64,000 nt of DNA, taken from positions 103,319-167,318 of the forward strand of contig JAVBTA010000003.1 in the NCBI GenBank assembly GCA_031556375.1. Direction: 5' to 3'. Made by a program: the position numbers and the translations under genes. The DNA is from Bacteroidales bacterium (lineage in GTDB: Bacteria; Bacteroidota; Bacteroidia; Bacteroidales; Azobacteroidaceae). Of the stretch, positions 25,669 to 62,746 are shown piece after piece. Every line of letters begins with the position of its first letter. Within the stretch, counting starts at the first letter, position 1. The notes beneath the pieces were generated by a model. It did no database searches, had not been told where the DNA came from, and was given only the letters and a program-made list of their open reading frames with translations.

Positions 25669-25670
25669 AC

Positions 25671-47360: not shown

Positions 47361-49763
47361 TCAGACTTTAATTTCGTTTTTTGCCTCTTTGTCGCGTTTG
47401 ATACATACATAGAGCAACACTATCGTAATCACCCCATAAACAATGCTTATCGCAGTTACTGCGGGAGGTGCATCGGTTTTACCATACGAATGTAGTCCGC
47501 TCAGATAATAATTCACACCGAAATAAGTCATTAATACACAAAGGAAAGCATATATAGACAGGACATTCAATAAAAAACGGTTTTGTTTACCGGATAACAA
47601 ACGTAGATGAAGAACTGTTGCATAAATGATCATTGTGATCAGAGCCCAGGTTTCTTTCGGATCCCACCCCCAGTACCTGCCCCAGGATTCATTAGCCCAT
47701 ACTGCGCCAAGAAATATTCCTATTGTCAACAAATAAAGCCCCAGAGTCATGGAAAGTTCATTGATGACAGATATTTCATCCAATAGAGCTTTTGACCGTT
47801 GCCGGGGATTAAAACACGAATAGAATACCGTGAATACGCCCAGAAGGAAACTCATTCCGAAAAAACCATAACTTGAAGTAATTATCGCTACATGGAACAT
47901 CAGCCAATGCGACTTCAAGACAGGAACCAGAGGGGTTATTTCCGGATCCATAAAGTTCATATGAGCCACCAGTAATACAAATCCGGCCAGCATCGTTCCC
48001 AGAGCCAGGGTAATTACCGAGCGACGGGAAAATATCAATCCTACCAGTACCGCGCTCCAGGAAACATAAACCATCGTTTCGTAAGCATTCGACCAGGGAG
48101 GTTGTTCCGAGACATACCATCGTAAGGCAATCGCCAGTGTATGAATAATAAAGCCGATGGCAACTAATACAATCCCCGAATAATAAAGCTTTTTCAGGGT
48201 AGAACCCGGCTTCACAATGAACAAAGCCCCAACAATCATCAAAAGAAAGCCAAGGGTAAGATACAACATGAATAGCTTATTCAGAATATCTGCTTTATTA
48301 TAGAAAATTTCTGTTGAAACTTTCGATGGTTTAGGAAGTTCCACCGTCGATCGTGCACTTTGGTAAACACTGATCATGTGTATAACCTCCGATGTAGTAT
48401 CCCAGTTGCCTGTTTCTTTAGCTGAAATCACTTCTTCCTGATACCATGGAAAAATTTTAGCTACAAACAACGAATCCTGGCCTGAGAAAGCCGACAGATC
48501 ATCTCCGGGAGCAAGCCAACGATGATCCTTATCATCAGGTAAAGGGAATATTGCAACCATCTGGCGATGCAGGATCTCAAACAAAATATTGACCTTCTCA
48601 TCAAGCTTGAGCATGTCTTTTTCCAGTCGCGTACGCTTTTCAACGGGTTTGTAATAAATATCTTCAAGATATTTCTCCAGTTTATAAGCTCCTTTTGAGT
48701 CGAAGTTATCATTGAAACTGATATCTGAACCTGAAGTTCCCATCAATTGATGGAGTTCTTCATTTTTTTGGCTTATTAAAGCTACTTCCGACCAATAATG
48801 AGGATAAACCAGCATTCCAAGTAAAACCCGATCGGCATTGAGTTTTCCTATATGATCTTTTTTATGCAGTTTTCTTACGATCTTGGAGGAATAAGTATTG
48901 AATGGTTCAATACGGCCATCTGTAGATTGAACAAGTAGTTTTCCAAACTCAGATGCACTTTCTTTTGTCGGAACAAAATTTTCAGGGTTTCCTGTTGGTT
49001 GCTGGGCATAAACACAAGCAATTCCGCCAAAGAACAGCAATAACAAAGCCCCTGATCGTGCTGTAATCGCTTTCAGTTCCCGAACCAGATTCCTGAAATG
49101 TGAATTTTTCGTCAGAATAATCATTACAAAACCTACCAGCAATAAAAAATAACCGATATAGGTGATGATCATTCCCCAAAAATCGTGATTAATAGTCAGT
49201 ACTGTACCTTTCTCGTCTTTATCAAAAGATGTCTGGTATATACGGTATTGTTGTTCATAAACAACTTTGTTCATAAACACTTTCTCTTCCCTCTCCTGCC
49301 CTTTGGAATAAATAATCAGGTCGCTTTCGAACGAAGACGGATTATTTGAACCGGGATATCGTATCAACCGAAAATCTTTCAATCCGATCTCAAACGGAAG
49401 TTGGACTTCTTTGAGATATTCTCCGTTATCTCCGGCCTGAAGGACTAATGTGGATTGTTTCTCTCCTTCCCGAATATGGATAAGTCCCTCATAACTAAAC
49501 AAATTTGTCACCAAGGCCCCGGAAAGGATAAAAACAAAAGCAATATGCAGTACCATCATTCCCCATTGACCACCAACCCGTTTTTTCCTTGTAAAAATCA
49601 AAACAAAGAAACAAACGATCATCAGCAGCTGTAGCCCATAGACAGCAATATTGTTATAAATATACTTCCTTGCAACTGCTATTCCATACTGATTTTCAAT
49701 GAAAGTAGCAGCTGCAAGCAACAAAGCATACAAAATGAGGAGGAAGATACTTAATTTTCTCAA
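47361..49763 (-). CDS. ccsBA: Cytochrome c biogenesis protein CcsBA (ResB-like + CcsA fusion, System II)
   Basis: The C-terminal CcsA haem-handling WWD domain is WGRYWGWDPKETWALITMIIYATVLH. The N-terminal half is a ResB-like polytopic region. 800 aa. Confidence 0.8.
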   Translation of the reverse strand: MRKLSIFLLILYALLLAAATFIENQYGIAVARKYIYNNIAVYGLQLLMIVCFFVLIFTRKKRVGGQWGMMVLHIAFVFILSGALVTNLFSYEGLIHIREGEKQSTLVLQAGDNGEYLKEVQLPFEIGLKDFRLIRYPGSNNPSSFESDLIIYSKGQEREEKVFMNKVVYEQQYRIYQTSFDKDEKGTVLTINHDFWGMIITYIGYFLLLVGFVMIILTKNSHFRNLVRELKAITARSGALLLLFFGGIACVYAQQPTGNPENFVPTKESASEFGKLLVQSTDGRIEPFNTYSSKIVRKLHKKDHIGKLNADRVLLGMLVYPHYWSEVALISQKNEELHQLMGTSGSDISFNDNFDSKGAYKLEKYLEDIYYKPVEKRTRLEKDMLKLDEKVNILFEILHRQMVAIFPLPDDKDHRWLAPGDDLSAFSGQDSLFVAKIFPWYQEEVISAKETGNWDTTSEVIHMISVYQSARSTVELPKPSKVSTEIFYNKADILNKLFMLYLTLGFLLMIVGALFIVKPGSTLKKLYYSGIVLVAIGFIIHTLAIALRWYVSEQPPWSNAYETMVYVSWSAVLVGLIFSRRSVITLALGTMLAGFVLLVAHMNFMDPEITPLVPVLKSHWLMFHVAIITSSYGFFGMSFLLGVFTVFYSCFNPRQRSKALLDEISVINELSMTLGLYLLTIGIFLGAVWANESWGRYWGWDPKETWALITMIIYATVLHLRLLSGKQNRFLLNVLSIYAFLCVLMTYFGVNYYLSGLHSYGKTDAPPAVTAISIVYGVITIVLLYVCIKRDKEAKNEIKV

Positions 49764-50566
49764 TTTGGCAAATTAAACACAGGTACCAATCCATCCAATT
49801 GTTCGTCGGTCATACCTTGAGGATCAAAGCCTGCCTGACGGGCCGTAAGATAGATTTGGGCTGATTTTGATAATGTATCTATTGCATCAAAAGTTTCGAT
49901 GATATCATCACCAACACAAAGAACCCCATGTTTTTCCCACAGGACAACATCGTGTCTGTCGAGTTGTTTAATAGTCGCTGCTGCAAGTTCCAGTGTTCCT
50001 GGGATTTCGTAAGGAATAATACCGATTCCACGCGGAACAACAATACGGGATTCCGGTATCATCGACCAAAGGATACGTGCCATAACACCCTCTTCCAGGA
50101 ATTTTTTGCCATGTGATAACGCGATCAGGTCTGTAGGATGTGTGTGTAACACCACTTTAATTCCTTTTCCGATCTCACGCATATAGTTATGCATTGAAAG
50201 ATGGGATGGTAATTCACTTGTAGGAGCTACCGGATTTTCGGCTATAATATCATAAGCATCTCCATTATCATTGATACGAATGATCGACCCGTGTTCAAAA
50301 GGGGATTTCGCTACATACCTCATTCTTTTTCCGGTTCCTGTAACATAGAAATAATTACCACGTAAATGATCGAATTTAAGAGGTAACGGTATGCTTGGAA
50401 CTAATCCCGGCAACGATTTGATTTCATTTGTCACATATTCCGTCAGATTAACGGATATATTTCCACCGTTACGTTCCGCCCATCCTTTTTCCCAAAGGTA
50501 ACCTGCTACTTCGGCTATTTTACCGATTTCATGCATTAATGCAGCATTTGCTCTGATACTATTCAT
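49760..50566 (-). CDS. Class II aldolase/adducin-family protein (rhamnulose-1-phosphate aldolase-like)
   Basis: ERNGGNISV, PTSELPSHL, VVLHTHPTDLIALS and GIGIIPYEIPGT parallel RhaD motifs. 268 aa. A 4-nt overlap with ccsBA. Confidence 0.65.
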   Translation of the reverse strand: MNSIRANAALMHEIGKIAEVAGYLWEKGWAERNGGNISVNLTEYVTNEIKSLPGLVPSIPLPLKFDHLRGNYFYVTGTGKRMRYVAKSPFEHGSIIRINDNGDAYDIIAENPVAPTSELPSHLSMHNYMREIGKGIKVVLHTHPTDLIALSHGKKFLEEGVMARILWSMIPESRIVVPRGIGIIPYEIPGTLELAAATIKQLDRHDVVLWEKHGVLCVGDDIIETFDAIDTLSKSAQIYLTARQAGFDPQGMTDEQLDGLVPVFNLPN

Positions 50567-50662: not shown

Positions 50663-53600
50663 TTAATCCTCTATAACTACACGAAATCCTACATTATAAA
50701 CCTTTTGCCAGGGTAAATATGCTTTTCTGACATAAGCAGCCGATGCTTTAGGATGTTCAATCCAGGAACCTCCCCTTACCACCTTTTCTTCTGTCGTTGC
50801 AGTTTTTTTGTCGCTCAACGGATAAGGAAGATAATCCGAACGGGTCCATTCTGCAACGTTTCCGTGGATGTCATAGATTCCCCATACATTCGGTTTGTAG
50901 CTACCCGGTTTTGCTACAAGCATATTGCCATCATCCACGCTTTCTTCCTTTGGATGCCATGTATAATACTTATACCAGCGGTTTTTCTCTCCCATTGGCT
51001 GAGGATCGACCCCTGATACTGCCATTTTATTCATTTGCTTATCAGCCATATTTTCAAAAGCGGCAAAATTATCATTGAAACTTCCATACCAGAATGGAGC
51101 ATCATTACCGGCTCTACAAGCCCACTCCCATTGTTGTTCGGTTGGTAAAGTCACTTTAAGACCTGTTTTTTCACCGAGTTTTTTACAATAATCCATTGCT
51201 TCCTGCCAGCTGACACGTATTACGGGTTGTTCCGGTTTATTCGCAGGATAACCCTCATTTACATGGTCTTTCCACTGTTGATCAAAGAATTTGCTGTCAT
51301 GTTGTGGAAAAAATACACGGAACTGTTCATTTGTAACCTCCATCTCAGCTATCCAGAACGATTTTTTCACTTCAGCTGCAAATGCAGGAGAATAATCGGA
51401 TGGTTTGTTGTTAGTGCCCATAATAAATTTTCCGGCAGGAACTTTCACAAATTTCATACTAATTCCAGGAGCAATTTCTATCATTTTAGATGTTTCTCCT
51501 GCTTTTGCCAACATAGAATATGCTTCCTGATTATCAAAGGGATAACCTTTCACTTTGACATCTTTATAATTTACCTCTTTTTTAACCGGTTTAACCTGAG
51601 TAGGTTTAGGTTGTTTACTCAAATAACCGGCATAATTCCGTATTTCACCTTTCCAGTCAACACCAGCTTCGTTGGCATACTTATCCGTCAGTTCAATGCG
51701 CCTTTGGATCTGATCACAATTATTATATTCCTCCGCACGCATAGTACTATGATAAGGAGCATTGAAATCGATCCAGTTATAAAGTGTTTTCCACTCTTTT
51801 TCAGTCAATTCCACTCCATGGTGACCTTTTTTCAACATAGAGATCAGAGGACTGGTAGAAACGTGGTATTCATAAGGATATAATACTTTCATACCAGCTT
51901 CAGGTCCCTGACGGTGAACATACGGATGCAAATCGAGATAACTTTTACTGTAGGCCAATTTATTCGGCACCTCTTCATCAATACGACCACCTCTGTAATC
52001 ACGCTTGAGAGAACCATTGTGACAAGCCACACAAGCCCTGTCTAAAATAGGCTGTATCTCTAATTCGAAAGTAAAAGGACGTACTCCCCCTTCCGGAATC
52101 GTTAAGTTTTTTGCAGGTTTCAAGGAAGCCATTGCCCGCTTAGGCTTAGGTATCTGATTCTGATCTTCGTGGCAGCCCACACAGGAAACTACTTCACCAG
52201 GCATGCCGGTCAACCAGCTTCTCATCCACTGGATAGCAGCTCCGTCCTTATCCAAGGGTTGAAGTGAAACCGGAGTATTAGCCGGGATATTAAACATCAC
52301 AGAACCATCATCTTCAACAGGTACCACCCCCAAAAGACGTTTGATGTCCCATCCGCTTTGAATACCCTGAGCCACGTGATCCGATTGAGAACGGTTGTAT
52401 GCATATTCATACGCAAATACACGTAAAGATTTCACAGTTCCTTTCGGTACATTCGGCAAACCTTCTCCTTCGTAAATATCCTGAATGAAAACGGTAGCTT
52501 CTTTTTTACTTTCATTTATCTTTGAAGGAATTACCGGAGGTGTCTGACGTTTAATCAATGGAATACCGTGAATATATCCGGCACCTTCTTCCAATACAAT
52601 TGGAGTGATATTATCGTAAATATCAACAAGATACAATCCCCATAAGCTATTCTCGTTCAACTTTGCTGTTACAAGAAAATATTTATCACTGATCGGATAA
52701 GGTTTGATAAATTGAGGATATACACCATTAACCAATTCATCCTTAACCAATGGAATGATCGGACGTTTACTGAATGGAATCTCCTGCAACATACCTTTTT
52801 CCTCTTTCCTGCTTTTTGCAGGATCAAAGGTCATCAGACGACCACTGCGAGCCACTCCATGATGACCGGAAATAATTCCGACAAACTGAGTTGTACCATT
52901 GGGTAATGGTTGAACATCAAAAGTACTGTTTGGAAAGACAGAACCACTACCATAAAGTGAGCGTTGTTCCGTACCGTCGGGATTCATGTGCATGACCATA
53001 CGCGAAAAATAGTGTGTCAAGTCGGTATATTCCCAACGAACATACATCAGACGACCGTTATTCATTACCGTAGGATGCCAGTTTGCATCCTGATCGAATG
53101 TCAAACGTCTGATTTTACCGGTTTTAGGATCGTAATTAATCATGTTTCCAACAGCATCGCTACCATTCACACAAGGCACAGCCTGATAACCTATATTTGA
53201 AACAGCAATAACCTTATTATCAGGGAGATATGTTCCATCAAAAAATTCCAGGTCTTTTTCTGTCGTTGTGATCATCTGTTTGAAATTTTTTCCGTCGATT
53301 CCGACTTCATATACATTCCAGAGATTATTCTCGTTGATCATTGAAAACATGACGCGATCTCCGTTCCAATGTAACTTCAAATCCGGCACAGACGATGTAT
53401 TTGTAGGCTTGAATATAGTTCTGTACTTGATATCTCCACGCAGGTTATTCATCTCCATGATTTCAGCATTGAATCCTTTTCTGGCAGCAGAAGACTGATT
53501 TGACCAGTTATTCGGCTGTGTACCAAGAGAATGTGCGCTATTCTTGCGGGCATTAACTCCGATAGTATATTTACTAACCAATAGTCTGTCCATATCCAAA

Positions 53601-54277
53601 CCCGGATTAGACAAAAGGATATCACGTTTTAATTTCAGGGCTTTCTCTGCCGAAGCAATCGCCGCCGGATCATTCGAATAAATACCGTCAAATCCTTTAT
53701 TAATCAATAATTTAAGTTCTTTTAACAGGGAAAGAGCCTGAACCAGATTAAAAGACGGACTGGATTTCATATCATTTATTGCGGCTTCGATAGAGGGCAC
53801 ATTAAGCCATTCTAACTGTTCGTCGAGCCTATTGATATTAGAAGCAACTATAAATAAATCCAGTAATCCGGTGGCCCGTGCTTCAGGATTGCTCAGCTTC
53901 ATTTGTTCTTTTGCCTTCGATTGAATATATGAGGGTTTTCGGATATATTTACAAATATCTTCAACCATAGCGTATTCAATGGAATCTCCTATAGTTGTAA
54001 AAAATATCTTCCGATCCTGAGGTTCCAGATAGGTCATTGAGAAGCCTGTTTCCAGTGGAAATTGCTTGTACAGGGCCTCTATTTCAGGATTAACGTTCAA
54101 TGAATCGAGAGGTATATTCTCCTTCTTTACTTTATCCATCACGGACTTCTTTGTAGTTATGACAGCTTCCGTCCAACTTACCGGTGTGCAATTTAACGAA
54201 GCTTTCTTACTTCCCTTCTGTGCAAAAACAGAAATAGTGAAGCAAAAACAGATCATAATAATCAGATTTTTCTTCAT
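50663..54277 (-). CDS. Secreted 1204-aa protein: TolB-like beta-propeller + di-haem c-type cytochrome region (HzsA-like architecture) + C-terminal FGE-sulfatase (SUMF1-like) domain
   Basis: Signal peptide MKKNLIIMICFCFTISVFAQ. Beta-propeller-like repeats. Two CxxCH motifs, SCVGCHEDQ and ACVACHNGS, about 45 aa apart. The C-terminal approximately 300 aa read ...WGIYDIHGNVAEWT...RGGSW..., typical of the FGE-sulfatase/GldJ-K fold. Confidence 0.65.
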   Translation of the reverse strand: MKKNLIIMICFCFTISVFAQKGSKKASLNCTPVSWTEAVITTKKSVMDKVKKENIPLDSLNVNPEIEALYKQFPLETGFSMTYLEPQDRKIFFTTIGDSIEYAMVEDICKYIRKPSYIQSKAKEQMKLSNPEARATGLLDLFIVASNINRLDEQLEWLNVPSIEAAINDMKSSPSFNLVQALSLLKELKLLINKGFDGIYSNDPAAIASAEKALKLKRDILLSNPGLDMDRLLVSKYTIGVNARKNSAHSLGTQPNNWSNQSSAARKGFNAEIMEMNNLRGDIKYRTIFKPTNTSSVPDLKLHWNGDRVMFSMINENNLWNVYEVGIDGKNFKQMITTTEKDLEFFDGTYLPDNKVIAVSNIGYQAVPCVNGSDAVGNMINYDPKTGKIRRLTFDQDANWHPTVMNNGRLMYVRWEYTDLTHYFSRMVMHMNPDGTEQRSLYGSGSVFPNSTFDVQPLPNGTTQFVGIISGHHGVARSGRLMTFDPAKSRKEEKGMLQEIPFSKRPIIPLVKDELVNGVYPQFIKPYPISDKYFLVTAKLNENSLWGLYLVDIYDNITPIVLEEGAGYIHGIPLIKRQTPPVIPSKINESKKEATVFIQDIYEGEGLPNVPKGTVKSLRVFAYEYAYNRSQSDHVAQGIQSGWDIKRLLGVVPVEDDGSVMFNIPANTPVSLQPLDKDGAAIQWMRSWLTGMPGEVVSCVGCHEDQNQIPKPKRAMASLKPAKNLTIPEGGVRPFTFELEIQPILDRACVACHNGSLKRDYRGGRIDEEVPNKLAYSKSYLDLHPYVHRQGPEAGMKVLYPYEYHVSTSPLISMLKKGHHGVELTEKEWKTLYNWIDFNAPYHSTMRAEEYNNCDQIQRRIELTDKYANEAGVDWKGEIRNYAGYLSKQPKPTQVKPVKKEVNYKDVKVKGYPFDNQEAYSMLAKAGETSKMIEIAPGISMKFVKVPAGKFIMGTNNKPSDYSPAFAAEVKKSFWIAEMEVTNEQFRVFFPQHDSKFFDQQWKDHVNEGYPANKPEQPVIRVSWQEAMDYCKKLGEKTGLKVTLPTEQQWEWACRAGNDAPFWYGSFNDNFAAFENMADKQMNKMAVSGVDPQPMGEKNRWYKYYTWHPKEESVDDGNMLVAKPGSYKPNVWGIYDIHGNVAEWTRSDYLPYPLSDKKTATTEEKVVRGGSWIEHPKASAAYVRKAYLPWQKVYNVGFRVVIED

Positions 54278-54291
54278 GGTATATTATACTA

Positions 54292-55200
54292 TTATTGTTT
54301 ATTCTTGTATTCAGATGATTTTTTCAAGTCTTTATTTTTAACAGGAAATACACAGGATATCCTTCCAATACCGTTTCCTTCCGACAGTTGCCACATTAAT
54401 TTATTGTCCTGTGTAATTTCAATTAAAGCCGGTTGATTGCCATCCTCCCCTTTCGCATGACCGTTCCAGTTGCAAATCAACAAGTTATTATTATCCAATT
54501 CGACTATTTGTGCAACAAAATTCAAGCGAATCCCTTCAATATCTTTTTGTCCGATTTTTCGGATTAATTGGCCTGTCTTCCGTTCCACTTCCAATGCCGA
54601 ATGGGCATCTCCGCATGCAATCAACAGATTTCCGTTTTTTAGTTCAACGATTGAAAACGGATTTCCTTCAACCTTAAAGCGCATCACTTCTTCTCCCTCA
54701 GGACTTATTTCGACGACCTCTCCTTTTGCCATGACAGGAAATAGATAATTCCCGTTTTTAGCTTTGATTAATTGTCGCATTTGTCCGTGCAGACTTTCAA
54801 CTCCAGTTTCAAAAGAGAGTTTTTTCACTTCTTTCCCTTTCTTGTTCAACTCAATTATTTTGGCCGGAGAACCACTATGAGCCAGTAGAAACCCTCCGTT
54901 TGGCATTTGAGTGGCAGCATAAAGCTCCCCTTTTTCCTCCAGCTTATAATCCCAGATTACTTCTTTCTTCGCATTAATAAGTTTTGCACCTTTCTTATAC
55001 GAAATCAACAAATTTCCGTCTTTAGTCAATGTAATGTTTTCACAATCATCACTTTTTTCCAAATCGTATGTCCACTCGATCTGCTTCGTATTTTTATCAA
55101 TTAAAACCACCTGTTGCCATCCACAACCACTGATAAAGATCTTATCCTGAGCAAGAAGGCTACAGGGTAAAAGAAGAAAAAGAAAAGCCAAATACTTCAT
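54292..55200 (-). CDS. Secreted beta-propeller-like protein of unknown function
   Basis: Signal peptide MKYLAFLFLLLPCSLLAQ. Repeated G-x-L-L patterns (NGNLLI, DGNLLIS, NNLLIC) suggest propeller blades. Confidence 0.45.
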   Translation of the reverse strand: MKYLAFLFLLLPCSLLAQDKIFISGCGWQQVVLIDKNTKQIEWTYDLEKSDDCENITLTKDGNLLISYKKGAKLINAKKEVIWDYKLEEKGELYAATQMPNGGFLLAHSGSPAKIIELNKKGKEVKKLSFETGVESLHGQMRQLIKAKNGNYLFPVMAKGEVVEISPEGEEVMRFKVEGNPFSIVELKNGNLLIACGDAHSALEVERKTGQLIRKIGQKDIEGIRLNFVAQIVELDNNNLLICNWNGHAKGEDGNQPALIEITQDNKLMWQLSEGNGIGRISCVFPVKNKDLKKSSEYKNKQ

Positions 55201-55276
55201 AAAATAACGTTTTATAAATTGAGTATGGAGACCTACCCCCCTACAAAGGGGGATGCCCATTCTCAATTCTCAATTC

Positions 55277-56149
55277 TCAATTCGATAAGTCCTCAAATAA
55301 CTGATAAGCCTCATTAACCGAGTAATTCTTATGAACAACTGCGCTAACGGCCTGTATCATAGCAATCGGATTTTCAGACTGGAATACATTACGTCCCATA
55401 TCCACACCGGCAGCACCATCATTGATTGCATTATAGCATAGTTCCAGAGCTTCTTTTTCCGGAAGTTTTTTACCACCTGCAATTACAATAGGTACGGGGC
55501 ATGCTGCAACAACGTTTTCAAATCCGTCGCAATAATAGGTTTTTACGATATTCGCACCATTTTCGGCACAAACACGGGAAGCCATACCAAAATAACGGGC
55601 ATCACGAGCCATATCTTTACCAACAGCAGTAACTCCCATTACAGGAATATTATATTTTGAACCCAAATCTGCCATTTTATAGAGATTCGCAACCGTTTTT
55701 GCTTCCATAGCCGGATCTCCGATAGCGAGCATAATAGCCATAGCAGATACATTCATCCTGATTGCATCCTCAATATCGATTACAACATTATCATTCAATT
55801 CCGTAAGGATAGTTGTTCCGGCATCCGATCGCAAACAAATAGGTTTATTGATATTTGCAGGAACTGATGATTGCAAAATACCGCGGGCACACATCAAGCA
55901 GTCCGCATACTCCATTAACGGGGTGATATTCAAGTCAATCCGTTCCAAACCTGAAGTAGGTCCCATGATGAACCCATGATCAAAAGCCAGCATCACTGTC
56001 CGTCCGCTTTGTGGGTTGAAAATACGTGTCAGCCTGTCTTTCATTCCCCAGGGAAGATTATCAGCACCTTTTACATGGAATGCCCGGTTTTTCACTTCAA
56101 CACCGATTCCAAATTTTTTACCTTCTCTGATATCGTCTAAATCTGCCAT
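55277..56149 (-). CDS. lsrF: LsrF-type class I aldolase/thiolase (DhnA/FbaB-DeoC superfamily; 3-hydroxy-5-phosphonooxypentane-2,4-dione thiolase-like)
   Basis: MADLDDIREGKKFG...TVMLAFDHGF..GPT.GLERIDLNI...GANIVKTYY...CPVPIVIAGGKKLPEKEALE...DMGRNVFQS is nearly colinear with enterobacterial LsrF as I recall it, including the Schiff-base lysine context IVKTYY. 290 aa. Confidence 0.75.
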   Translation of the reverse strand: MADLDDIREGKKFGIGVEVKNRAFHVKGADNLPWGMKDRLTRIFNPQSGRTVMLAFDHGFIMGPTSGLERIDLNITPLMEYADCLMCARGILQSSVPANINKPICLRSDAGTTILTELNDNVVIDIEDAIRMNVSAMAIMLAIGDPAMEAKTVANLYKMADLGSKYNIPVMGVTAVGKDMARDARYFGMASRVCAENGANIVKTYYCDGFENVVAACPVPIVIAGGKKLPEKEALELCYNAINDGAAGVDMGRNVFQSENPIAMIQAVSAVVHKNYSVNEAYQLFEDLSN

Positions 56150-56191
56150 TTTTTTTGTACATTTATATTTTTAGAAAGTCCCTTAAATTAC

Positions 56192-56800
56192 TTACTCTGC
56201 AAATGCCTGGAACATACAAGCCCATGATGAAGCTCCTGAATCAGCGTAACCTATGGATTTTTCTCCGTAATTGCGGGCTCGCCCGAAGTTTGCTTTCATT
56301 TCGATAGTAGCTTCTGCCCCTGTTTTAGCGGCTTTAGCAGCTTCTGTAAAGAGTTGGGTAATATCATCCGAATCACAAGCCAACATTGCATCTACAGCAG
56401 GAATCAGGGCATCCATCATTGTTTTGTCGCCTTTTTGAGCCTGAGTTTGTTTACATACACCCTCCAGACCTCCCTTGAAGAGTTGTTTGACCTGTTCCGC
56501 ATTCATTTCTGTTCCTTCAACATGGTCGCTCATTCCGAGAAGAAAGCCACCAATTAAAGTACTGGTAGAACCACTGGTTTGCATCATCACATTGAATCCC
56601 ATGTCATTAAGCATAGTCTTCAGTTCCGTACCTTTCTTTGCAGCTTCCACAACAGAAGTCAGAGCCTGAACGATGGCTGTTCCATGGTCTCCGTCTCCAA
56701 TTACAGCGTCTAATTGAGAGAATTCATCAGCACGTTCGGTTACACGAACCAAAGCACGTTCCCACATGCTGATGAAGTCTTGTATAGTTAATTTTTGCAT
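56192..56800 (-). CDS. dhaL: Dihydroxyacetone kinase-type ADP-binding subunit
   Basis: AVIGDGDHGTAIVQALTSV is the DhaL signature DGDxG. 202 aa. Confidence 0.8.
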   Translation of the reverse strand: MQKLTIQDFISMWERALVRVTERADEFSQLDAVIGDGDHGTAIVQALTSVVEAAKKGTELKTMLNDMGFNVMMQTSGSTSTLIGGFLLGMSDHVEGTEMNAEQVKQLFKGGLEGVCKQTQAQKGDKTMMDALIPAVDAMLACDSDDITQLFTEAAKAAKTGAEATIEMKANFGRARNYGEKSIGYADSGASSWACMFQAFAE

Positions 56801-56804
56801 ATTA

Positions 56805-57845
56805 TTAAATCGTAGTCCAGTAAGGAGCGTTTGCTCTGCGTTTTAGAAGTTCAACATGATCGGCATCCAGTTTACCCAGCATCATTTGGAATCCTGAAAG
56901 TTCTTGAACTGTAAGGATTTCCATTAATTTTGCATCAGCAACTTCAATACCGGCATCCATTAGTATCTGGTGAGCTTTACGGAAAACAATACTCATTTCC
57001 ATATGAGTTGTAGCGCCGCTTCCATTGATGTAAAGCATTACTTTATCTCCTTTTTCAGGCTGGATCTTCTTGCACAACTGGTTAATCATGATTTCAGCCG
57101 TTTTATCCGCAGATTCTAACATCTGACGGCCATTGCTTCCGCCTTCACCGTGTTGTCCCATACCGATTTCCATTTCACCTGAAGGCAGGCTGGAGATAAC
57201 CGCACCATTCTGAGGATGAGTACATTGTCCCATAGCCACGGCCAAAGTAGCGATTTGTTTGTTGAAACGTTCACCGATTTCGCAGATCTCATCAAGGCTT
57301 TTTCCTTCTTCAGCGGCAGCACCTACTATTTTAGCTAGAGGTACACAACCGGCCAAACCCCGTCTGTCTTTATCCGGAGTATCCAAACCGGAACTGATAT
57401 CGTCGTGAGTCAGAATCGATTTTACTTTGATACCTGCCTTTTCTGCGAGCATTGTTGCCATATTGGCACTCATCACGTCTCCGGAATGATTCAAAACGAT
57501 TAACAGGATACCGGCATCACGTTTGAACATTTGCAAAGCCTGGAAAAGACGTTGAGCACCTGGAGCAGCAAAGATATCGCCGACAACAGAGCAATCCAGC
57601 ATACCTTCTCCGACAAATCCACTCAATGCAGGTTCGTGTCCTGAACCTCCTAAAGTAATGATTGCCACTTTCTTTTCGTCCTTCGGTTGAGCTCTTACCA
57701 CAATATTTTCGCCGCCTAAAGCAACTTTATCATTATAAGCCAACACATATCCTTCCAGTAATTCTTTTGTTATATTTTCGGGTTCATTGATGAACTTGGT
57801 CATAATCTTACTCATGATATTATTTTTTAAAGGTTTATTTATCAA
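56805..57845 (-). CDS. dhaK: Dihydroxyacetone kinase-type substrate-binding subunit
   Basis: ITLGGSGHEPALSGFVGEGMLDCSVVGDIFAAP carries the DhaK GGGSGHEP signature and the substrate His. 346 aa. Confidence 0.85.
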   Translation of the reverse strand: MINKPLKNNIMSKIMTKFINEPENITKELLEGYVLAYNDKVALGGENIVVRAQPKDEKKVAIITLGGSGHEPALSGFVGEGMLDCSVVGDIFAAPGAQRLFQALQMFKRDAGILLIVLNHSGDVMSANMATMLAEKAGIKVKSILTHDDISSGLDTPDKDRRGLAGCVPLAKIVGAAAEEGKSLDEICEIGERFNKQIATLAVAMGQCTHPQNGAVISSLPSGEMEIGMGQHGEGGSNGRQMLESADKTAEIMINQLCKKIQPEKGDKVMLYINGSGATTHMEMSIVFRKAHQILMDAGIEVADAKLMEILTVQELSGFQMMLGKLDADHVELLKRRANAPYWTTI

Positions 57846-58152
57846 AACACATTAACTCGATTGGGATACCTTCTTCTACGATAAAAGCGATAGTCAGGTT
57901 TTCTCCACCCGGACATGGCTCTACAATTACGTTTGCACCCTTTAAAGCTTCTTCCATATTTGGCACTTCGTATGCAATATGAGGAACTTTCTGAATAATT
58001 TCAGGCAACCAGCTTCCTTCTTCAAAACGAAGGAACTCAATTCTGTTCGGACTTTTTGAATAATCGGTCAAATGAACTTTCATTCCATCTACAAAAAACT
58101 CTCCTTGTTGACTTTCGCAAGTCGGAATTCCGTAATGATTAATTTTTCTCAT
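57835..58152 (-). CDS. Small hypothetical protein (possibly VOC/glyoxalase-like half-domain)
   Basis: 105 aa. Its stop overlaps the dhaK start by 11 nt, implying translational coupling. No clear motif. Confidence 0.4.
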   Translation of the reverse strand: MRKINHYGIPTCESQQGEFFVDGMKVHLTDYSKSPNRIEFLRFEEGSWLPEIIQKVPHIAYEVPNMEEALKGANVIVEPCPGGENLTIAFIVEEGIPIELMCFDK

Positions 58153-58179
58153 GGTAATTCAGTATTTCAGGTTTATAAA

Positions 58180-58872
58180 TTATTTTCTCATTCCTGCCAA
58201 AGCGTCTGTAAATACAGCACCCGGATTAGTAAAACGCAAACCATTACCATCGTGATAATTTGCATATTCAGTAACTATTGCACCTTCAGGGCCCGCAAAC
58301 AAGAAGTGTGGAGATTCTGCTTCGGCCAAATGAATTACTTCATCAACCATTTGTTTCTGGAAATGAGAAACAGTGATAAAATCTTTCTGACTTGCCGGTA
58401 AAACAGGAGGATTAGGAGTTGGGTCTCCGATTGAATAGTTGTAAGTCCAACCGTGACGAACCTGCCAGCTTTCAAATTTAGGAGGATGGTTTGTTGCTAC
58501 GTGACGGTGTTCCAGGATCATTTGTCCGGGTAATAAGTAGATTTCATGTCCGAAATAAGCATGAGCTTCATCGTTTACCCAGAATAAACCTGCCATTCCT
58601 ACATTTTCGAAGTCTCCCAGTTCAAAATCGGTGATCCACAGATTATTTTTTACAAACTCGGAATATGGAACTCCATAATAATCAAGCATATCCAGATATG
58701 CATCCAGAGCGACTTTAGGATCCAATTTTCCATCTTTGTAAAAATCCGCATTTGTGTACTTTTTCTTGTACGGTTCTTTTGTTTGCATAACTTCTTCTTT
58801 TTTAGTTTCACCGGAACAAGCTACTAAAGCAACCCCGATTATTAAGATCATTAAATTTTTAATTGTTTTCAT
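58180..58872 (-). CDS. Cupin-fold lipoprotein (possible sugar isomerase)
   Basis: Lipobox LVACSG. Cupin-like His cluster LPGQMILEHRHVATNHPPKFE. 230 aa. Confidence 0.45.
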   Translation of the reverse strand: MKTIKNLMILIIGVALVACSGETKKEEVMQTKEPYKKKYTNADFYKDGKLDPKVALDAYLDMLDYYGVPYSEFVKNNLWITDFELGDFENVGMAGLFWVNDEAHAYFGHEIYLLPGQMILEHRHVATNHPPKFESWQVRHGWTYNYSIGDPTPNPPVLPASQKDFITVSHFQKQMVDEVIHLAEAESPHFLFAGPEGAIVTEYANYHDGNGLRFTNPGAVFTDALAGMRK

Positions 58873-58886
58873 ACAATAATTATTAT

Positions 58887-60044
58887 TTATTTCAAGTTTA
58901 TTTTATTTTCTATCAATGCAATTCCCTCTATTTCAACCAATAATTCATCCCGGCATACATCAGCCAGGACATAACAAACCGGAACTTTCGCATATTTTAC
59001 CTTTACTACATTACGTGCCGCTTCCAGATATTTACAGCCTTTCAGATATACCCGTAAAGAGCAGATCCGGCCATATCCTTTCAACCCGGACTTAGATTCA
59101 CTTAAGGTTTGACCGGATATCAAATGCTCTACATTTTCCAATGTAATCCTGGTCTGTTCTTCTATTCCAACGTCTGCAAGGCTATTTTCACCACGGATTG
59201 CAGCCGTTCCTGAGACATAAATCAATCCTGATCCGTTTTCTAAAACTAATTTGGCTCTCTCAAATTTAGGAGTCGTTTTCTGCTTCAATTCTTTATCTTC
59301 CTCCCCGATCAACACTTTTTCCGAATAACCGAATGCAGGCACCTGTAAGCTATTATCAAGCGGAATTATCCGGTTTTCCGGAGTTGTAAAACAAAATGCT
59401 TCCAGATCGATCATTATTCCTCCGAAAGAAGTACCGATGCCTGTTGCCGCAGGAAAACCATTGTTCCAGATTGCAGAAGTATAGAAATGAGTTCTCGCAT
59501 CATTAAAATCCTGATAATGCTGATGGGTTCCTTCTATTTTTGTGATTTGCTCTATATAATTCCATTGACGGACAATAGACGAAACCGGCATGTTTTCACA
59601 AATAAAAATGTCTTTTAATTTAGAAAAAACCTGATCTGACTGTGTCCTGATCGAGTTTTTTAATGAATCTGCCAGAACTCCTCCGACAAACAGTTTTTTT
59701 GATTTTCCGTTTTGGAGAATAATATATGGTAAATCGTTTTGTTTCTTATAATGAACTTCTGTTCCGGCCTCCCACTCTGCCTCAAAAACTTCGAGGATTA
59801 AAGTATCCTGTTCCAGAGGAGGTTGAGCCACATAACTAAAAACCGGAGCTTTTTCTTCAAATTTACGTTCTACAAACCGAGCAATTAACGTTAAATGCTT
59901 CTTGTACTCTTCGTTATCCGTTGGATTTCCGAAAAATACAAGTCTTATAATTGTTCCTGTTTCAAAACCGGAATTAAATAAATAATCCAGTTGTTCTTCG
60001 ATTGAATTTCCTTTACTTTGTATATAATTACACTTAATAAACAT
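58887..60044 (-). CDS. Two-domain protein with a C-terminal RidA/YjgF-like domain (possibly FkbO/Hyg5-like chorismatase family)
   Basis: The C-terminal 120 aa read LIYVSGTAAIRGENSLADVGIEEQTRITLENVEHLIS...CRDELLVEIEGIAL, which is the RidA fold pattern. The N-terminal approximately 250 aa are unassigned. Confidence 0.5.
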   Translation of the reverse strand: MFIKCNYIQSKGNSIEEQLDYLFNSGFETGTIIRLVFFGNPTDNEEYKKHLTLIARFVERKFEEKAPVFSYVAQPPLEQDTLILEVFEAEWEAGTEVHYKKQNDLPYIILQNGKSKKLFVGGVLADSLKNSIRTQSDQVFSKLKDIFICENMPVSSIVRQWNYIEQITKIEGTHQHYQDFNDARTHFYTSAIWNNGFPAATGIGTSFGGIMIDLEAFCFTTPENRIIPLDNSLQVPAFGYSEKVLIGEEDKELKQKTTPKFERAKLVLENGSGLIYVSGTAAIRGENSLADVGIEEQTRITLENVEHLISGQTLSESKSGLKGYGRICSLRVYLKGCKYLEAARNVVKVKYAKVPVCYVLADVCRDELLVEIEGIALIENKINLK

Positions 60045-60046
60045 TA

Positions 60047-61843
60047 CTACAGAGAGTTAACATATTCCACCAATGCTTCGATTTCCTTTTTGGAAACCTT
60101 CTTATCGATCCCATGTTTATGTACCGTAAAGACATCCTCCATGGTTGCAGCTCTTCCATCGAAAAGATAAGGAGCTGTACGCCAGGATTCTATCAACGTA
60201 GGGGTATCCCAACCAGTCTCAAATTCGATATCTTGTCCAATACGGTGCAGTTTCATATCTGTAAAATAAACTCCGGAATGACATTCACCACAACTGAGCT
60301 TATCAAATATCTTTTTCCCTTGTTCTGCTTTTTCAGATAATTTTCCATTAACAAGATACGGGCTTGGAACCGGACGAAGCGATCTCAGATAGTCATCTAC
60401 ACAAACGGCCTTTTCTTCCGGGATCTCGGCAAACTGAATCAGTGCAAATCCCTTTCTTACAGCCAGATCTGCAGATTCACGAATTCCGGAAATCATAGAA
60501 GGGGGAGTTACATGACTGTAAAGCATACTTTTACAGTTTTTCGGATTACCTATTCCATCGTTCATCAAATCCCAGTTCATCCCATCGGTTCTGGCATCCG
60601 GGTGACAACCGATACAGGATTGCCAACCCTGGAAACAGTATGCAGCATCATGGAAATATTTCTCTCCTTTATTTGCCGACGATTCAATCCGGTTTACGAC
60701 TAAAGGACGATTTTCCACCTTATTGTCAGCTAAATTGAGAATATTTAATGTATCTGAAAAATAAGTCGGGATATATACTTTATCATTTGAAACGACAAAG
60801 TTTCGCGGACCGTTTCCTATCAATGAGATACGTTGTTTTAGTCCGTATAAAAAGCGTAAATCATAATCCAGAGAAGATTTATCAGGATATGCGATAAATC
60901 TTTCAATCATCTTCGGATAATCGACAATGCTGATTTCATGGGTGCCGGAATGTGAAATAACAAGCTTATCCGGCGTACAGTGAATTCCCCAGATCCCGGC
61001 AGCGCCTCGTTCCGGATCATCCAACAGTATCGAGCCCAGATTTTCAAATTTTGCAGCATCTACTATTGTAATCGCACTGGTATTCATCCAGCCTTGTTGC
61101 AATTGGTTGGTAGGCACCTGGAAACGTCCCAGATTGTGAGTAATGAAAACGTACTTTCCATCGGGACTCAAACACATTCCTCGTAACGCATTACTTCCGT
61201 TTGCCAGTTGAATATCTTTTATTTTGGTGAAATTTTTCAGATCGATGACCGATACACAAGACGCGACTGTGTCAATATCCGCACGTTGTTCAGGTAAATA
61301 GTTCGAAACAAATAAATACCGGTTATCCTGGCTAAGTACCGCGCATGCGGGCTCTCGTAAGACTTTTACGGTATTAACAACCTCCGCTTTTGACAGATCG
61401 ATCTCACTGACAGTTGTCTGAAACTGATTCATGACATACAATGTCTTTCCATCGGAAGAAAGCACGGGAGAAGTAGCTCCGGAACCGGTTTCCAGAACTT
61501 TTTCCACAACTCCGCTTTCAAGATTCAGAAAATGTACCTCACCTATTGCTTCAAAAGTCGTAACATAAGCATATTCACCCGAAGTAACAACTCCGGTTGG
61601 CGCTTGAGGAAATGTCCAGGTCTTCACCGGTTTATCAAAATCGACGTTATATAATTCTAATGTTTTATTTCCTCTATTTGTTATCAGGAATTGATGGTTG
61701 TCTGTTTCTTTAATATCTGTGGGATAATGGGGATATGAAGCTTTATCAGCTTGATCACCAACTGAAGTAGAACTTAGAGATAAGGTTGTCAGACTTACCG
61801 CAACCAGCAGTATTAAATAAGGTATTAATGAATTTTTATACAT
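60047..61843 (-). CDS. Secreted YVTN-type beta-propeller protein with a C-terminal di-haem cytochrome c domain
   Basis: Signal/TM N-terminus. Repeated ~40-residue blades (DGKTLYVMNQ, DNRYLFVSNY, DGKYVFITHN). Two CxxCH motifs, SCIGCHPD and SCGECHSG, about 100 aa apart. Confidence 0.65.
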   Translation of the reverse strand: MYKNSLIPYLILLVAVSLTTLSLSSTSVGDQADKASYPHYPTDIKETDNHQFLITNRGNKTLELYNVDFDKPVKTWTFPQAPTGVVTSGEYAYVTTFEAIGEVHFLNLESGVVEKVLETGSGATSPVLSSDGKTLYVMNQFQTTVSEIDLSKAEVVNTVKVLREPACAVLSQDNRYLFVSNYLPEQRADIDTVASCVSVIDLKNFTKIKDIQLANGSNALRGMCLSPDGKYVFITHNLGRFQVPTNQLQQGWMNTSAITIVDAAKFENLGSILLDDPERGAAGIWGIHCTPDKLVISHSGTHEISIVDYPKMIERFIAYPDKSSLDYDLRFLYGLKQRISLIGNGPRNFVVSNDKVYIPTYFSDTLNILNLADNKVENRPLVVNRIESSANKGEKYFHDAAYCFQGWQSCIGCHPDARTDGMNWDLMNDGIGNPKNCKSMLYSHVTPPSMISGIRESADLAVRKGFALIQFAEIPEEKAVCVDDYLRSLRPVPSPYLVNGKLSEKAEQGKKIFDKLSCGECHSGVYFTDMKLHRIGQDIEFETGWDTPTLIESWRTAPYLFDGRAATMEDVFTVHKHGIDKKVSKKEIEALVEYVNSL

Positions 61844-61856
61844 CAGAATTTGTTTT

Positions 61857-62660
61857 TCATGTATTGCTATAACCTAACTCAAAAGAAATATTCTGAGTAA
61901 TATTCTGTATTTCATTCGCAAACATCAGGATTGTTTCTCCCGGCAACCGGTCTTTCGGACCAGAGATCCAGATAGATCCGCAAGGGGCATTACTATAATT
62001 GAATATAGGCACTCCTATGCATACAACTCCATTCAATTCTTCTTCCATATCGACAGCATAACCCAATTTGCGGACTTTATCCAATTCCAGCAGATATGCT
62101 TCTTCTGTTGAGATTGTATTTCGGTTGTATATCTGATAATTCATTTTTGATAAATAGTCCTTCCTGGATTCTTCCGGCATAAACGCCATCATGGCTTTTC
62201 CCGGAGCCGAACAATGCAAATCGAATGATTTTCCCGGAGAGAGGACAAAGCAAAACGGATGTGTTCCTAAAACCTGTTCGATAAAAAGACCCTTATCCGT
62301 ACCCATAACACCGAAACAAACTGTTTCTTTCACAATATCACGCAGTTCACGCATTTTAGGCAGTACAACCTCTAACAGGCTGTGTTCCTGTATAGATTGA
62401 AAGCCTAAGATAAGCATTTTTCTTGAGAGTTTATATTTTTTTGACGAATTATTGTAGAGTAAGTAACCTAATCTGACTAATGTATTAAGGATCCGGTAAG
62501 TTGTAGTCTGCGAAATATCGGCTTCATTTCTGATTTCCTGCAAAGTCATTCCCCTATTAGCATTGGCTAACAGTTCAAGTATTAATATTCCCTTTTCAAG
62601 ATTGGGGACTTTGTAAGAATCGTCTAATTCTTCAGGTGTGTTTTTCATATTTGAAATCAT
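61857..62660 (-). CDS. IclR-family transcriptional regulator
   Basis: N-terminal wHTH (GMTLQEIRNEADISQTTTYRILNTLVRLGYL) plus an IclR effector domain. Start chosen at an internal Met. It heads the same-strand array at its upstream end. Confidence 0.75.
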   Translation of the reverse strand: MISNMKNTPEELDDSYKVPNLEKGILILELLANANRGMTLQEIRNEADISQTTTYRILNTLVRLGYLLYNNSSKKYKLSRKMLILGFQSIQEHSLLEVVLPKMRELRDIVKETVCFGVMGTDKGLFIEQVLGTHPFCFVLSPGKSFDLHCSAPGKAMMAFMPEESRKDYLSKMNYQIYNRNTISTEEAYLLELDKVRKLGYAVDMEEELNGVVCIGVPIFNYSNAPCGSIWISGPKDRLPGETILMFANEIQNITQNISFELGYSNT

Positions 62661-62746
62661 TTTCCAGATTCGAAACAAAAATAAGCATTTCAAATGAATG
62701 TTTTAAATTCAATTAGTTAAATTTAGTTAAATATCAATCAACAAGC

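Follow-up and report, generated by a model that had tools for sequence, protein, structure and literature searches.

To our knowledge, hydrazine synthase (HZS) was long believed to be an enzyme without relatives. It has been speculated that hzs-like genes belong to a broader family (PMC10732223), and a 2025 study described co-localised homologues of HZS alpha and of HZS beta-gamma in Planctomycetota, Desulfobacterota and a few other groups (PMC12758564). The key HZS residues are not conserved in those homologues, no function was given for them, and Bacteroidota are mentioned once, for the beta-gamma tree, as well as in the supplementary hit tables (PMC12758564). A second described system, the Lsr pathway of E. 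coli, runs through the kinase LsrK, the isomerase LsrG and the thiolase LsrF (PMC8016206). Here we analyse a gene cluster in a 64,000-nucleotide stretch of DNA from a Bacteroidales bacterium (the window: positions 103,319 to 167,318 of contig JAVBTA010000003.1); coordinates are positions in the window, and genes lie on its minus strand unless stated otherwise. Judged from its sequence, the cluster is an HZS-like haem system joined to an Lsr-like route, and the combination is new. A preliminary description of the window had stated that its gene content matches no described pathway. Our full-text literature search found none either, and it returned no account of the cluster, of its IclR operator, or of an association of the haem pair with cupin, chorismatase-like, DhaKL and LsrF genes.

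Two exported haem proteins of the cluster are distant homologues of all three HZS subunits, because PDB matches, the Pfam family HZS_alpha, the alignment of the haem motifs and a whole-chain structural match all lead to that enzyme. The first protein, of 598 residues (60047..61843), is a beta-gamma-like fusion. It joins a seven-bladed YVTN-type beta-propeller, which in a PDB search matches HZS beta (5c2v_B, 6.7e-19), to a di-haem domain of the CCP/MauG type that matches HZS gamma (5c2v_C, 3e-16). It has the haem motifs CIGCH (residue 410) and CGECH (residue 518), and exactly two CxxCH motifs are found in 81 of 81 homologues. The second protein, of 1204 residues (50663..54277), is alpha-like and carries, from its N to its C terminus, a signal peptide, a helical domain of about 200 residues, a beta-propeller, the HZS_alpha middle domain (Pfam, 1e-37) and an FGE/PvdO-like domain (FGE-sulfatase, 2e-41). 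Both of its motifs, CVGCH at residue 699 in the middle domain and CVACH at residue 749, align to haems alpha I and alpha II of 5c2v_A, and its homologues also hold exactly two (62 of 62). HZS has four c-type haem sites, gamma I and II and alpha I and II, and each of them is present here in alignment with the HZS motifs. An AlphaFold (AF2) model of the 1204-residue protein has a mean pLDDT of 69.6, with a confident N-terminal helical domain and propeller and with low-confidence haem regions, as expected without the cofactor. Its top Foldseek match is 5c2v_A (4e-23 over 796 columns), fifteen orders of magnitude ahead of the next fold, TolB (2e-8).

For comparison we scanned one genome per species, which gave 458 confirmed loci, and kept 80 of them; presence was counted by tblastn with the window proteins in the 56 loci that have at least 9.9 kb of downstream sequence. 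The alpha-like and beta-gamma-like genes occur together in all 56. The preliminary description had correctly seen two exported cytochrome proteins with two CxxCH motifs each, and had overlooked their homology to HZS. Public annotation conceals the same likeness, labelling the beta-gamma-like protein a 'YVTN family beta-propeller repeat protein' and the alpha-like protein a 'SUMF1/EgtB/PvdO family nonheme iron enzyme'.

We considered whether the pair could be a true hydrazine synthase, with an anammox function, and rejected this. None of the four curated NCBIfam cut-offs for HZS is reached, and the scores lie about tenfold below them: the 598-residue protein gives 104.5 bits against 1250 for hydrazine_BC (4.2e-30), 70.7 against 560 for the beta model and 58.3 against 625 for the gamma model, and the 1204-residue protein gives 59.6 against 800 for the alpha model. 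Hallmark residues are absent as well. The roles in HZS of gamma-Cys165 and of the alpha-subunit Tyr591 and Zn site are set out in PMC12758564. In a phmmer alignment the chain position of gamma-Cys165, the third covalent haem link of HZS, pairs with Val462 of the 598-residue protein, and this valine is invariant in the family alignment. The Tyr591-type ligand of haem alpha I, four residues past the CXXCH histidine, is also missing; the family sequence reads CVGCHEDQNQIPxPKR and has no Tyr within the ten residues that follow the motif. For the Zn-site cysteine of HZS alpha, there is no reliable alignment with the 1204-residue family. Nor does clustering of the open reading frames (ORFs) around the 80 loci reveal any conserved partner of the hydrazine dehydrogenase or HAO type.

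The terminal domains of the alpha-like protein deserve separate mention. An active formylglycine-generating enzyme or an EgtB-type sulfoxide synthase at its C terminus was rejected: the catalytic Cys pair of FGE is absent from the sequence, and the best matches are PvdO and non-catalytic members of the PorK/GldK type. The helical N-terminal domain has no meaningful Pfam match at E <= 10. In most loci the alpha-like protein is longer, about 1330 residues, and an NPCBM carbohydrate-binding domain takes the place of the helical domain at the N terminus.

The cytoplasmic half of the cluster includes a block of four genes, for a VOC protein, DhaK, DhaL and LsrF, which are always contiguous and always in this order. 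The last of them (55277..56149) encodes a genuine LsrF, a class I aldolase-fold protein of the 3-hydroxy-5-phosphonooxypentane-2,4-dione thiolase type. It scores 462 bits against a cut-off of 297 for NF006081 and aligns to E. coli LsrF (3gkf) over the full length with 360 bits and about 62% identity, and its Schiff-base lysine, within IVKTYY, falls on E. coli K203. The fit to the thiolase is far better than that to the biosynthetic aldolases (7.5e-139 vs 1.6e-23). The putative two-subunit dihydroxyacetone-type kinase consists of DhaK (56805..57845; Pfam Dak1, 1.6e-95) and the nucleotide-binding subunit DhaL (56192..56800; Pfam Dak2, 1.3e-39), in which the DxxxGDGDxG motif can be read; the catalytic His/Asp motifs of such kinases are present too. 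DhaK lies under its NCBIfam equivalog cut-off (dhaK1, 286 vs 406) and DhaL just under its own (TIGR02365, 134.3 vs 138.3). ATP would be the phosphoryl donor, because no DhaM was found in any of the 80 loci. Kinases of the DhaK type need a free carbonyl adjoining the phosphorylated hydroxyl or one carbon away from it, and both the autoinducer-2 compound DPD and its isomer 3,5-dihydroxypentane-2,4-dione have one.

The first gene of the block (57835..58152), whose identity the preliminary description had passed over, encodes a cytoplasmic protein of 105 residues. It has no library match, and Pfam at E <= 10 returns only two chance-level hits (E 0.12 and 0.25). An AF2 model built with 26 homologues gives a confident VOC/glyoxalase fold (pLDDT 95.9), and its top Foldseek matches are 3oa4, Ni-glyoxalase I (2qh0, 3hdp) and methylmalonyl-CoA epimerases (6bu2, 6qh4). 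H6, E39, H58 and E99 are invariant and are predicted to bind a metal. Because of the confident fold, the nearest structures and these four residues, we regard the modelled protein as a compact VOC-superfamily metalloenzyme of the kind that works through enediolate intermediates, and as a candidate enediolate isomerase. It is not an LsrG homologue, since it has the VOC fold and not the ABM fold.

Tight packing on one strand is by itself commonplace in bacteria. We place the cluster above chance because the same families co-occur around the 598-residue gene in 80 loci from many Bacteroidales families. The presence of individual genes in the 56 countable loci ranges from 53 for the cupin and 50 for the chorismatase-like gene, through 47 for IclR, to 43 each for VOC and DhaK and 41 for CcsBA. 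Two gene orders are found. The first, which is the layout of the window (8 loci), runs IclR, beta-gamma, chorismatase-like, cupin, then VOC, DhaK, DhaL, LsrF and propeller as one stretch, then alpha and CcsBA; in the second (35 loci; full order read in L081 and L083) the stretch from VOC to propeller follows alpha and CcsBA. The preliminary description had treated the exported redox genes and the DhaKL/LsrF genes as one set, and the comparison bears this out, with both together in 43 of the 56 loci. Haem genes were likewise present in seven of seven VOC-anchored contexts, and in the window 27 and 76 nt separate the block from the exported components on either side, without a promoter motif in between. 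Clustering of all ORFs across the 80 loci revealed no further shared family and no transporter or SusCD; the flanks depend on the lineage.

Relatives of the beta-gamma-like protein number more than 5,600 in clusters of 90% identity, and the best 120 are all at least 58% identical. Carriers include Parabacteroides distasonis, goldsteinii, gordonii, hominis and faecis, Bacteroides salyersiae, fluxus, neonati and faecalis, and members of Odoribacter, Millionella, Rikenellaceae, Tannerellaceae, Dysgonomonadaceae, Petrimonas, Fermentimonas and Prolixibacteraceae. Further carriers are metagenome-assembled genomes (MAGs) from marine and lake sediment, termite gut, rumen and digesters, and one Opitutales bin. 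In human-gut Parabacteroides and Bacteroides the cluster is very common, and single 90%-identity clusters hold thousands of metagenomic copies.

At the head of the cluster stands a gene for an IclR-family transcription regulator (61857..62693; Pfam IclR_C 2.9e-38, HTH_IclR 1.1e-13). The protein stays under all NCBIfam equivalog cut-offs, with BhcR, PcaR/PobR and KdgR as its top matches, and its gene lies directly upstream on the same strand in 55 of the 69 loci with enough upstream sequence. Its promoter and operator region (62643..62683, minus strand) holds a Bacteroides-type -7 box, TATTTTTG (62676-62683; pattern TAnnTTTG), and two tandem dyads, TTTCGAATCTGGAA (62662-62675) and TTTCAAATATGAAA (62643-62656), the second of which overlaps the iclR ATG. 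The dyad consensus is TTTCnAATnTGrAA. In the 64-kb window the exact motif occurs at the iclR start only; across loci, 46 of 59 have a dyad at most 80 nt from the start of iclR, and 26 have it twice, against a mean of 0.6 and a maximum of 4 in shuffled sequence. As read from the sequence, the -7 box and dyads have the hallmarks of an autoregulated IclR promoter from which the following genes are driven, with the dyads as the predicted operator. Both marks of an IclR-regulated operon are found, the HTH_IclR and IclR_C domains in the protein and a palindromic candidate operator at its own promoter. Promoter calls were based on the Bacteroides -7 motif instead of the sigma-70 scan, which returned 41 sites against 50 expected and was uninformative.

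Other signals in the cluster are few. The only other intergenic promoter candidate on the coding strand, TAACTTTG, lies in the 96-nt gap before an aldolase-ccsBA gene pair. An RNA stem-loop followed by a U-rich stretch (55216..55269, minus strand) stands between lsrF and the propeller gene, with a minimum free energy of -26.2 kcal/mol and a z-score of -3.0 against 200 shuffles. It falls inside the coding sequence of the mechanical ORF list, and it may be a partial terminator or an RNA-stability element that attenuates or stabilises the transcript. No known RNA or riboswitch was found in the region (no Rfam match at E <= 0.1). Upstream of the iclR ATG, at a distance of about 70-100 nt, type-B loci (for example L017, L048 and L038) show a second conserved element that consists of ATGCTnnnnnAGCAT and then ACTTAAC-n3-TTTTTAC; the window has related TTTAAC repeats at about 62700-62730. 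This element may bind another regulator or serve as an alternative promoter.

From 62693 down to 50663 the minus strand holds exactly ten consecutive ORFs. With the longest ORFs the spacings are 13, 2, 14, 27, -11, 4, 42, 10 and 14 nt, and the ten packed genes with gaps of -11 to 42 nt in the preliminary description agree with this list. Three of the longest-ORF starts, those of iclR, dhaK and the propeller gene, are probably artefacts. The iclR start is most likely the ATG at 62648 (protein MKNTPEE) and not the TTG at 62693, because the position of this ATG is kept in other loci and is embedded in the conserved operator. For dhaK the start is most likely 57815 or 57803, because the NCBIfam model begins at residue 15 and homologous loci have a gap of 20-30 nt there; the 11-nt overlap then disappears. 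The propeller gene most likely starts at 55200, the first codon of its signal peptide. After these corrections the gaps run from 2 to 76 nt. Two database entries (P0089, 830 residues, and P0115, 851 residues) join IclR domains to the beta-gamma-like protein; they are most likely gene-calling read-throughs across the 13-nt gap and not genuine fusions.

The cluster extends past 50663. A 96-nt gap is followed by a gene for a 268-residue class II aldolase of the rhamnulose-1-phosphate aldolase (RhaD) type (49760..50566), which overlaps by 4 nt a gene for a fused CcsBA (ResB + CcsA) of cytochrome maturation system II (47361..49763; Cytochrom_C_asm 1.6e-41, ResB 2.6e-20). The aldolase thus corrects the preliminary description, which had placed CcsBA directly downstream. 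It scores 302.8 against 170 for NF002963 and 202 against a cut-off of 401 for TIGR02624, and among the 80 loci a RhaD-type aldolase is in the cluster in L002 only, a lineage-specific addition. CcsBA scores 192.5 against 187.6 on TIGR03144, with ResB and CcsA fused in one chain, and its gene is inside the cluster in 41 of the 56 loci. From the gene layout we infer an operon, and the transcription unit probably continues through the aldolase to CcsBA, ending at 47361. The earlier proposal of one or two polycistronic units under IclR is a fair one, given the position of iclR, the operator and the promoter candidates. Upstream, a 110-residue protein with an MGMT/Ogt DNA-binding domain is encoded at 62747-63079 (minus strand), 53 nt from the long iclR ORF. 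It is probably outside the cluster, because it adjoins iclR in L001 and not in L002.

Signal peptides or a lipobox were read on the 598-, 230-, 324- and 1204-residue proteins and on no other protein of the cluster. The 230-residue protein (58180..58872) is a lipoprotein cupin related to D-lyxose/D-mannose ketol-isomerases (PDB 7nzo 2.2e-15, 2y0o 5.4e-14); it has no NCBIfam match and no meaningful Pfam match even at E <= 10. Its lipobox Cys and HxH...E...H pattern are, by eye, conserved in 70 homologues. It appears to share the fold and this motif with the isomerases, but known lyxose isomerases are cytoplasmic, whereas the cluster protein is an exported lipoprotein, often with a Cys-rich linker. 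Such a linker (CCxxGxxxCTEQC...) directly follows the lipobox in many Parabacteroides and Bacteroides versions (examples are L024:12862-13599, L046 and L037) and is lacking in the window version; it may be a metal-binding tether. The 324-residue protein (54292..55266) is a Mal s 1-like beta-propeller (Pfam Mala_s_1-like, 1e-55) with the signal peptide MKYLAFLFLLLPCSLLA, beginning at 55200 and with a Q after the cleavage site, and is found in the cluster in about a quarter of loci. One uncultured Bacteroides (L065:4791-8994) has a second, 39% identical alpha-like gene just upstream of the main cluster, paired there with a separate Mal s 1-like propeller, which suggests that the propeller is a partner of the alpha-like protein.

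The remaining cytoplasmic protein (385 residues, 58887..60044) is built from domains of the RidA/YjgF fold and resembles chorismatases of the FkbO/Hyg5 type (Pfam FkbO_Hyg5-like_N 4.3e-12, Ribonuc_L-PSP 2.6e-09). It matches Hyg5 (5ag3) at 1.2e-23. With these chorismatases it shares the fold and the conserved motifs FPAATGIG and DVCRxxLLVEIEG; it differs in its score with TIGR04444, which is 114 bits against a cut-off of 325. The family calls of the preliminary description (IclR, DhaK, DhaL, LsrF, cupin lipoprotein, RidA fusion, exported di-haem pair and propeller) are all correct.

Several features suggest that the exported proteins deal with glycans or are tethered to them: the NPCBM domain on most alpha-like proteins, the neighbouring glycoside hydrolase (GH) and carbohydrate-binding module (CBM) genes, and the sugar-isomerase-like cupin. 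A GH27 alpha-galactosidase is inserted within the cluster in L052; L086, L088 and L090 have genes for GH31, GH36 and a 677-residue protein immediately upstream of the cluster; in L009 the cluster is preceded by a GH95 gene, and in L051 the alpha-like gene is followed by one for a CBM9-like protein. The position between alpha and ccsBA also varies with lineage. It holds RhaD in the window, and in L086 (17813-19522) and L088 (18067-19871) a DAHP-synthase-like gene, divergent at 165 bits against a cut-off of 335, with a 317-residue lipoprotein. This lipoprotein has no database match and by eye has motifs like those of jelly-roll polysaccharide lyases; PDB sequence searches with two accessory proteins of L086 gave no match. 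These two loci have no IclR gene and are preceded by the GH31, GH36 and 677-residue genes. In a Tannerella MAG (L072:18635-20106) an AAA_21 ATPase and DUF4276 pair, of abortive-infection-like type, sits between ccsBA and the VOC gene, and foreign insertions are therefore tolerated at the block boundary.

We tentatively favour the view that the cluster is one IclR-controlled system, in which an exported haem complex would act on a carbohydrate-derived compound and an Lsr-like route would carry the product to dihydroxyacetone phosphate (DHAP) plus acetyl-CoA; we hold this at somewhat less than even confidence. Gene content, homologies, export signals, haem motifs, conserved synteny and the conserved operator are observations; beyond these, the existence of a physical complex, its substrate, the sequence of reactions and any link of the exported half to the cytoplasmic one are proposals. 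The alpha-like and beta-gamma-like proteins would form a complex as in HZS, their haems attached by the cluster's own CcsBA, and would be accompanied by the cupin lipoprotein and often by the Mal s 1-like propeller. Outside the cytoplasm, this complex would use its haems for redox chemistry on a small compound derived from carbohydrate. Inside, the chorismatase/RidA-fold hydrolase may remove an enol-ether- or imine-linked group, the VOC metallo-isomerase would take the role of LsrG and the DhaK/DhaL kinase that of LsrK, and LsrF would cleave a DPD/HPD-type C5 hydroxy-diketone, or a closely analogous deoxy-keto-sugar, to DHAP and acetyl-CoA. The IclR protein would repress its own promoter through the two dyad operators until its effector arrives. 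We couple the two halves because 43 of the 56 loci hold both in two gene orders, all seven VOC-anchored contexts carry haem genes, and no other family is shared.

A bolder form of the same proposal can be stated. The exported pair would be a true HZS-type machine, with two catalytic haems joined by a tunnel and two electron-transfer haems, that performs a new heteroatom or redox condensation on a sugar-derived substrate in the periplasm of widespread human-gut commensals and hands its product to a new, non-orthologous Lsr-like route into central metabolism. We regard this as a long shot. If true, it would provide the first function for the large HZS-like superfamily outside anammox, and a new type of extracytoplasmic reaction in gut Bacteroidales.

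A number of observations weigh against a single system acting on a sugar-derived compound. Thirteen of the 56 loci have no DhaKL/LsrF block within reach, and a few loci (L034, L035 and L039) consist of IclR, beta-gamma, cupin and alpha only; the exported part can therefore stand alone. No inward transporter for a product is shared across the 80 clustered loci, nor is there a gene for an electron donor or acceptor of the haem complex. Nitric oxide (NO), hydroxylamine or peroxide, and not sugars, are what the closest relatives of these haem proteins act on. We know of no demonstration that DhaK-family kinases phosphorylate DPD or HPD, and the proposed DhaKL step depends solely on the alpha-hydroxy-ketone end of the substrate. 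No specific substrate accounts for the role proposed for the chorismatase-like protein. The glycosidase-type neighbours are lineage-specific and may be coincidental, and we treat them as hints and not as part of the core. Several concrete substrates were considered and found unsupported, as the conserved core does not fit them: salvage of 5-deoxyribose or methylthioribose, catabolism of 6-deoxyhexoses (rhamnose, fucose) and 6-deoxy-5-ketofructose, and galactose/tagatose or unsaturated uronates. Each of the rejected substrates matches accessory genes of some lineages, such as RhaD in the window, the alpha-galactosidases or the lyase-like lipoprotein.

The loci without the block also lend themselves to a different explanation, in which an IclR-regulated exported haem-cupin system and a separate small catabolic VOC-DhaKL-LsrF block are unrelated, and history alone accounts for their adjacency or co-transcription. 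Two modules would suit the mobility of the block, which as a unit occupies either of two positions, ahead of or behind the alpha-like gene and ccsBA, as well as the strong stem-loop after lsrF in the window and the lack of any evident transporter or shared intermediate. Such an accident of history is nevertheless unlikely in our judgement, as the association persists across many families and in both gene orders, haem genes accompany every VOC-anchored context, and the window's block is embedded between exported components at 27 and 76 nt with no promoter motif. If the cytoplasmic branch is instead taken as the centre, the cluster could serve to quench the interspecies signal autoinducer-2 (AI-2), as a non-orthologous Lsr pathway that destroys DPD. 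DPD would be isomerised to the hydroxy-diketone and then phosphorylated, or the reverse, LsrF would yield DHAP and acetyl-CoA, and the exported proteins would serve to trap AI-2 forms or adducts outside the cell or to process them beforehand. The close identity to E. coli LsrF, above the equivalog cut-off, the isomerase-type protein and kinase immediately beside LsrF in every locus, and the abundance of the cluster in human-gut Parabacteroides and Bacteroides all speak for quenching. A Bacteroidetes lsrF homologue is moreover statistically gut-associated and was suggested to degrade AI-2 (PMC6084841). We still think AI-2 quenching rather improbable: the loci encode no homologue of LsrK, LsrG, LsrB/ACD or LsrR, carriers also live in marine and lake sediment, termite gut and digesters, the LsrF block is altogether absent from some loci, and a four-haem complex with its own maturation system and a chorismatase-like enzyme would be left unaccounted for.

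Starting from the haem pair, whose only characterised relatives are the HZS subunits, leads to nitrogen-oxide chemistry. Hydroxylamine would be made by reduction of NO or nitrite at the gamma-like haem and then, at the alpha-like haem, be condensed or dismutated with a second substrate. The outcome would be either detoxification of reactive nitrogen species or an N-X bond formed on a carbonyl or amino compound, and the imine- or oxime-type adduct would be cleared by the RidA-fold hydrolase together with the keto-sugar branch. Hydrolysis of C=N bonds is a known activity of RidA-fold enzymes, which suits this role, and carriers are anaerobes of nitrite- and NO-exposed habitats. The two-step mechanism of HZS itself has experimental support (bioRxiv 10.64898/2026.02.25.707902). 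We give nitrogen chemistry little credence all the same, with an invariant Val462 in the place of gamma-Cys165, no Tyr after the alpha CVGCH and family scores about tenfold under the cut-offs. ORF clustering of the 80 loci shows no NO-responsive regulator, Hao/Hdh partner or electron-donor cytochrome, and carbohydrate-binding domains and glycosidase neighbours do not fit. One could also imagine a biosynthetic cluster, in which the chorismatase-like enzyme, an aldolase of the LsrF/ADH-synthase family, the kinase and, in one lineage, the DAHP-synthase-like enzyme build a small aromatic or quinone-like molecule or cofactor that the exported MauG/CCP-like haem proteins use or modify. MauG-type di-haem enzymes are known to mature cofactors, the LsrF family also includes ADH synthase and the GriI/BagB-type aldolases, and the similarity to Hyg5 (1.2e-23, motifs conserved) and the DAHP-synthase-like gene within the cluster in L086 and L088 point the same way. 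Biosynthesis is nonetheless very improbable, because this LsrF is far closer to the thiolase than to biosynthetic aldolases (7.5e-139 vs 1.6e-23), the chorismatase cut-off is missed (114 vs 325), the DAHP-synthase-like gene is limited to one lineage, and clustering of the 80 loci shows no exporter and no tailoring enzymes. We therefore keep, tentatively, to a single IclR-controlled system that joins exported haem chemistry to an Lsr-like route.

Elsewhere in the window two observations concern the organism and not the cluster. A glutamate mutase/methylaspartate cluster on the plus strand (21540-27041), unexpected in a Bacteroidales genome, comprises genes for a MutL-like protein (21540-22922), MutE (22950-24410), methylaspartate ammonia-lyase (24424-25668) and an AtuA-like protein (25671-27041), and is the methylaspartate route of glutamate fermentation. 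Also on the plus strand (15133-20934) is a gene for a 1933-residue cargo protein of the type IX secretion system (T9SS), which has a Por_Secre_tail besides trypsin-like, PKD, BACON and Ig domains. Genes for a CHU_C protein (36918-38210) and for GldB (38202-39575) lie near it, and the organism therefore has a T9SS/gliding apparatus.

The HZS-like pair described here is the core of a discrete, regulator-equipped predicted operon that is extremely common in human-gut Parabacteroides and Bacteroides. Several carriers are cultivable and genetically tractable, and a predicted repressor and operator are defined, so that what the HZS-like superfamily does can be put to a direct test. The earlier statistical link of a Bacteroidetes lsrF homologue with gut colonisation could also find its explanation in the attached LsrF branch.

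In comparison with known systems, the exported half stands closest to HZS. Each of the three subunits has a homologue encoded in the cluster, and beta and gamma form one chain, as they do in Ca. Scalindua and in the published homologues; the proteins are exported, the gamma-like and the alpha-like part each carry two c-type haem motifs, and the alpha-like fold matches best on 5c2v_A. The Bacteroidales alpha-like protein differs in adding an N-terminal helical or NPCBM domain and a C-terminal FGE/PvdO-like domain, and the Bacteroidales cluster lacks the hydrazine dehydrogenase and HAO partners. Whereas the published HZS-like clades have FG-GAP/CRTAC1 proteins or extra c554 domains as partners (PMC12758564), the partners here are the cupin lipoprotein, the chorismatase-like protein, the DhaKL-LsrF block, IclR and CcsBA. 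In its C-terminal half, the 598-residue protein also belongs to the same superfamily as the bacterial di-haem CCP/MauG/MbnH proteins (Pfam CCP_MauG; NCBIfam MauG-like and MbnH; PDB 6e1c). Its matches to the CCP/MauG models are weak (E 1e-5 to 1e-7), however, and its di-haem domain is fused to a seven-bladed propeller and closer to HZS gamma than to any peroxidase.

The cytoplasmic half compares with the Lsr pathway of E. coli and Salmonella. In both, a true LsrF stands beside a kinase and a small isomerase-type protein, and the predicted end products are DHAP and acetyl-CoA. The kinase, however, is DhaK/DhaL in place of the FGGY kinase LsrK, and a VOC fold replaces the ABM fold of LsrG. Neither an LsrACDB transporter nor the SorC-type regulator LsrR is found in the window's cluster or conserved across the loci, where the regulator is of the IclR type. 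Unlike its counterpart in the Lsr system, the Bacteroidales block is embedded among exported haem proteins.

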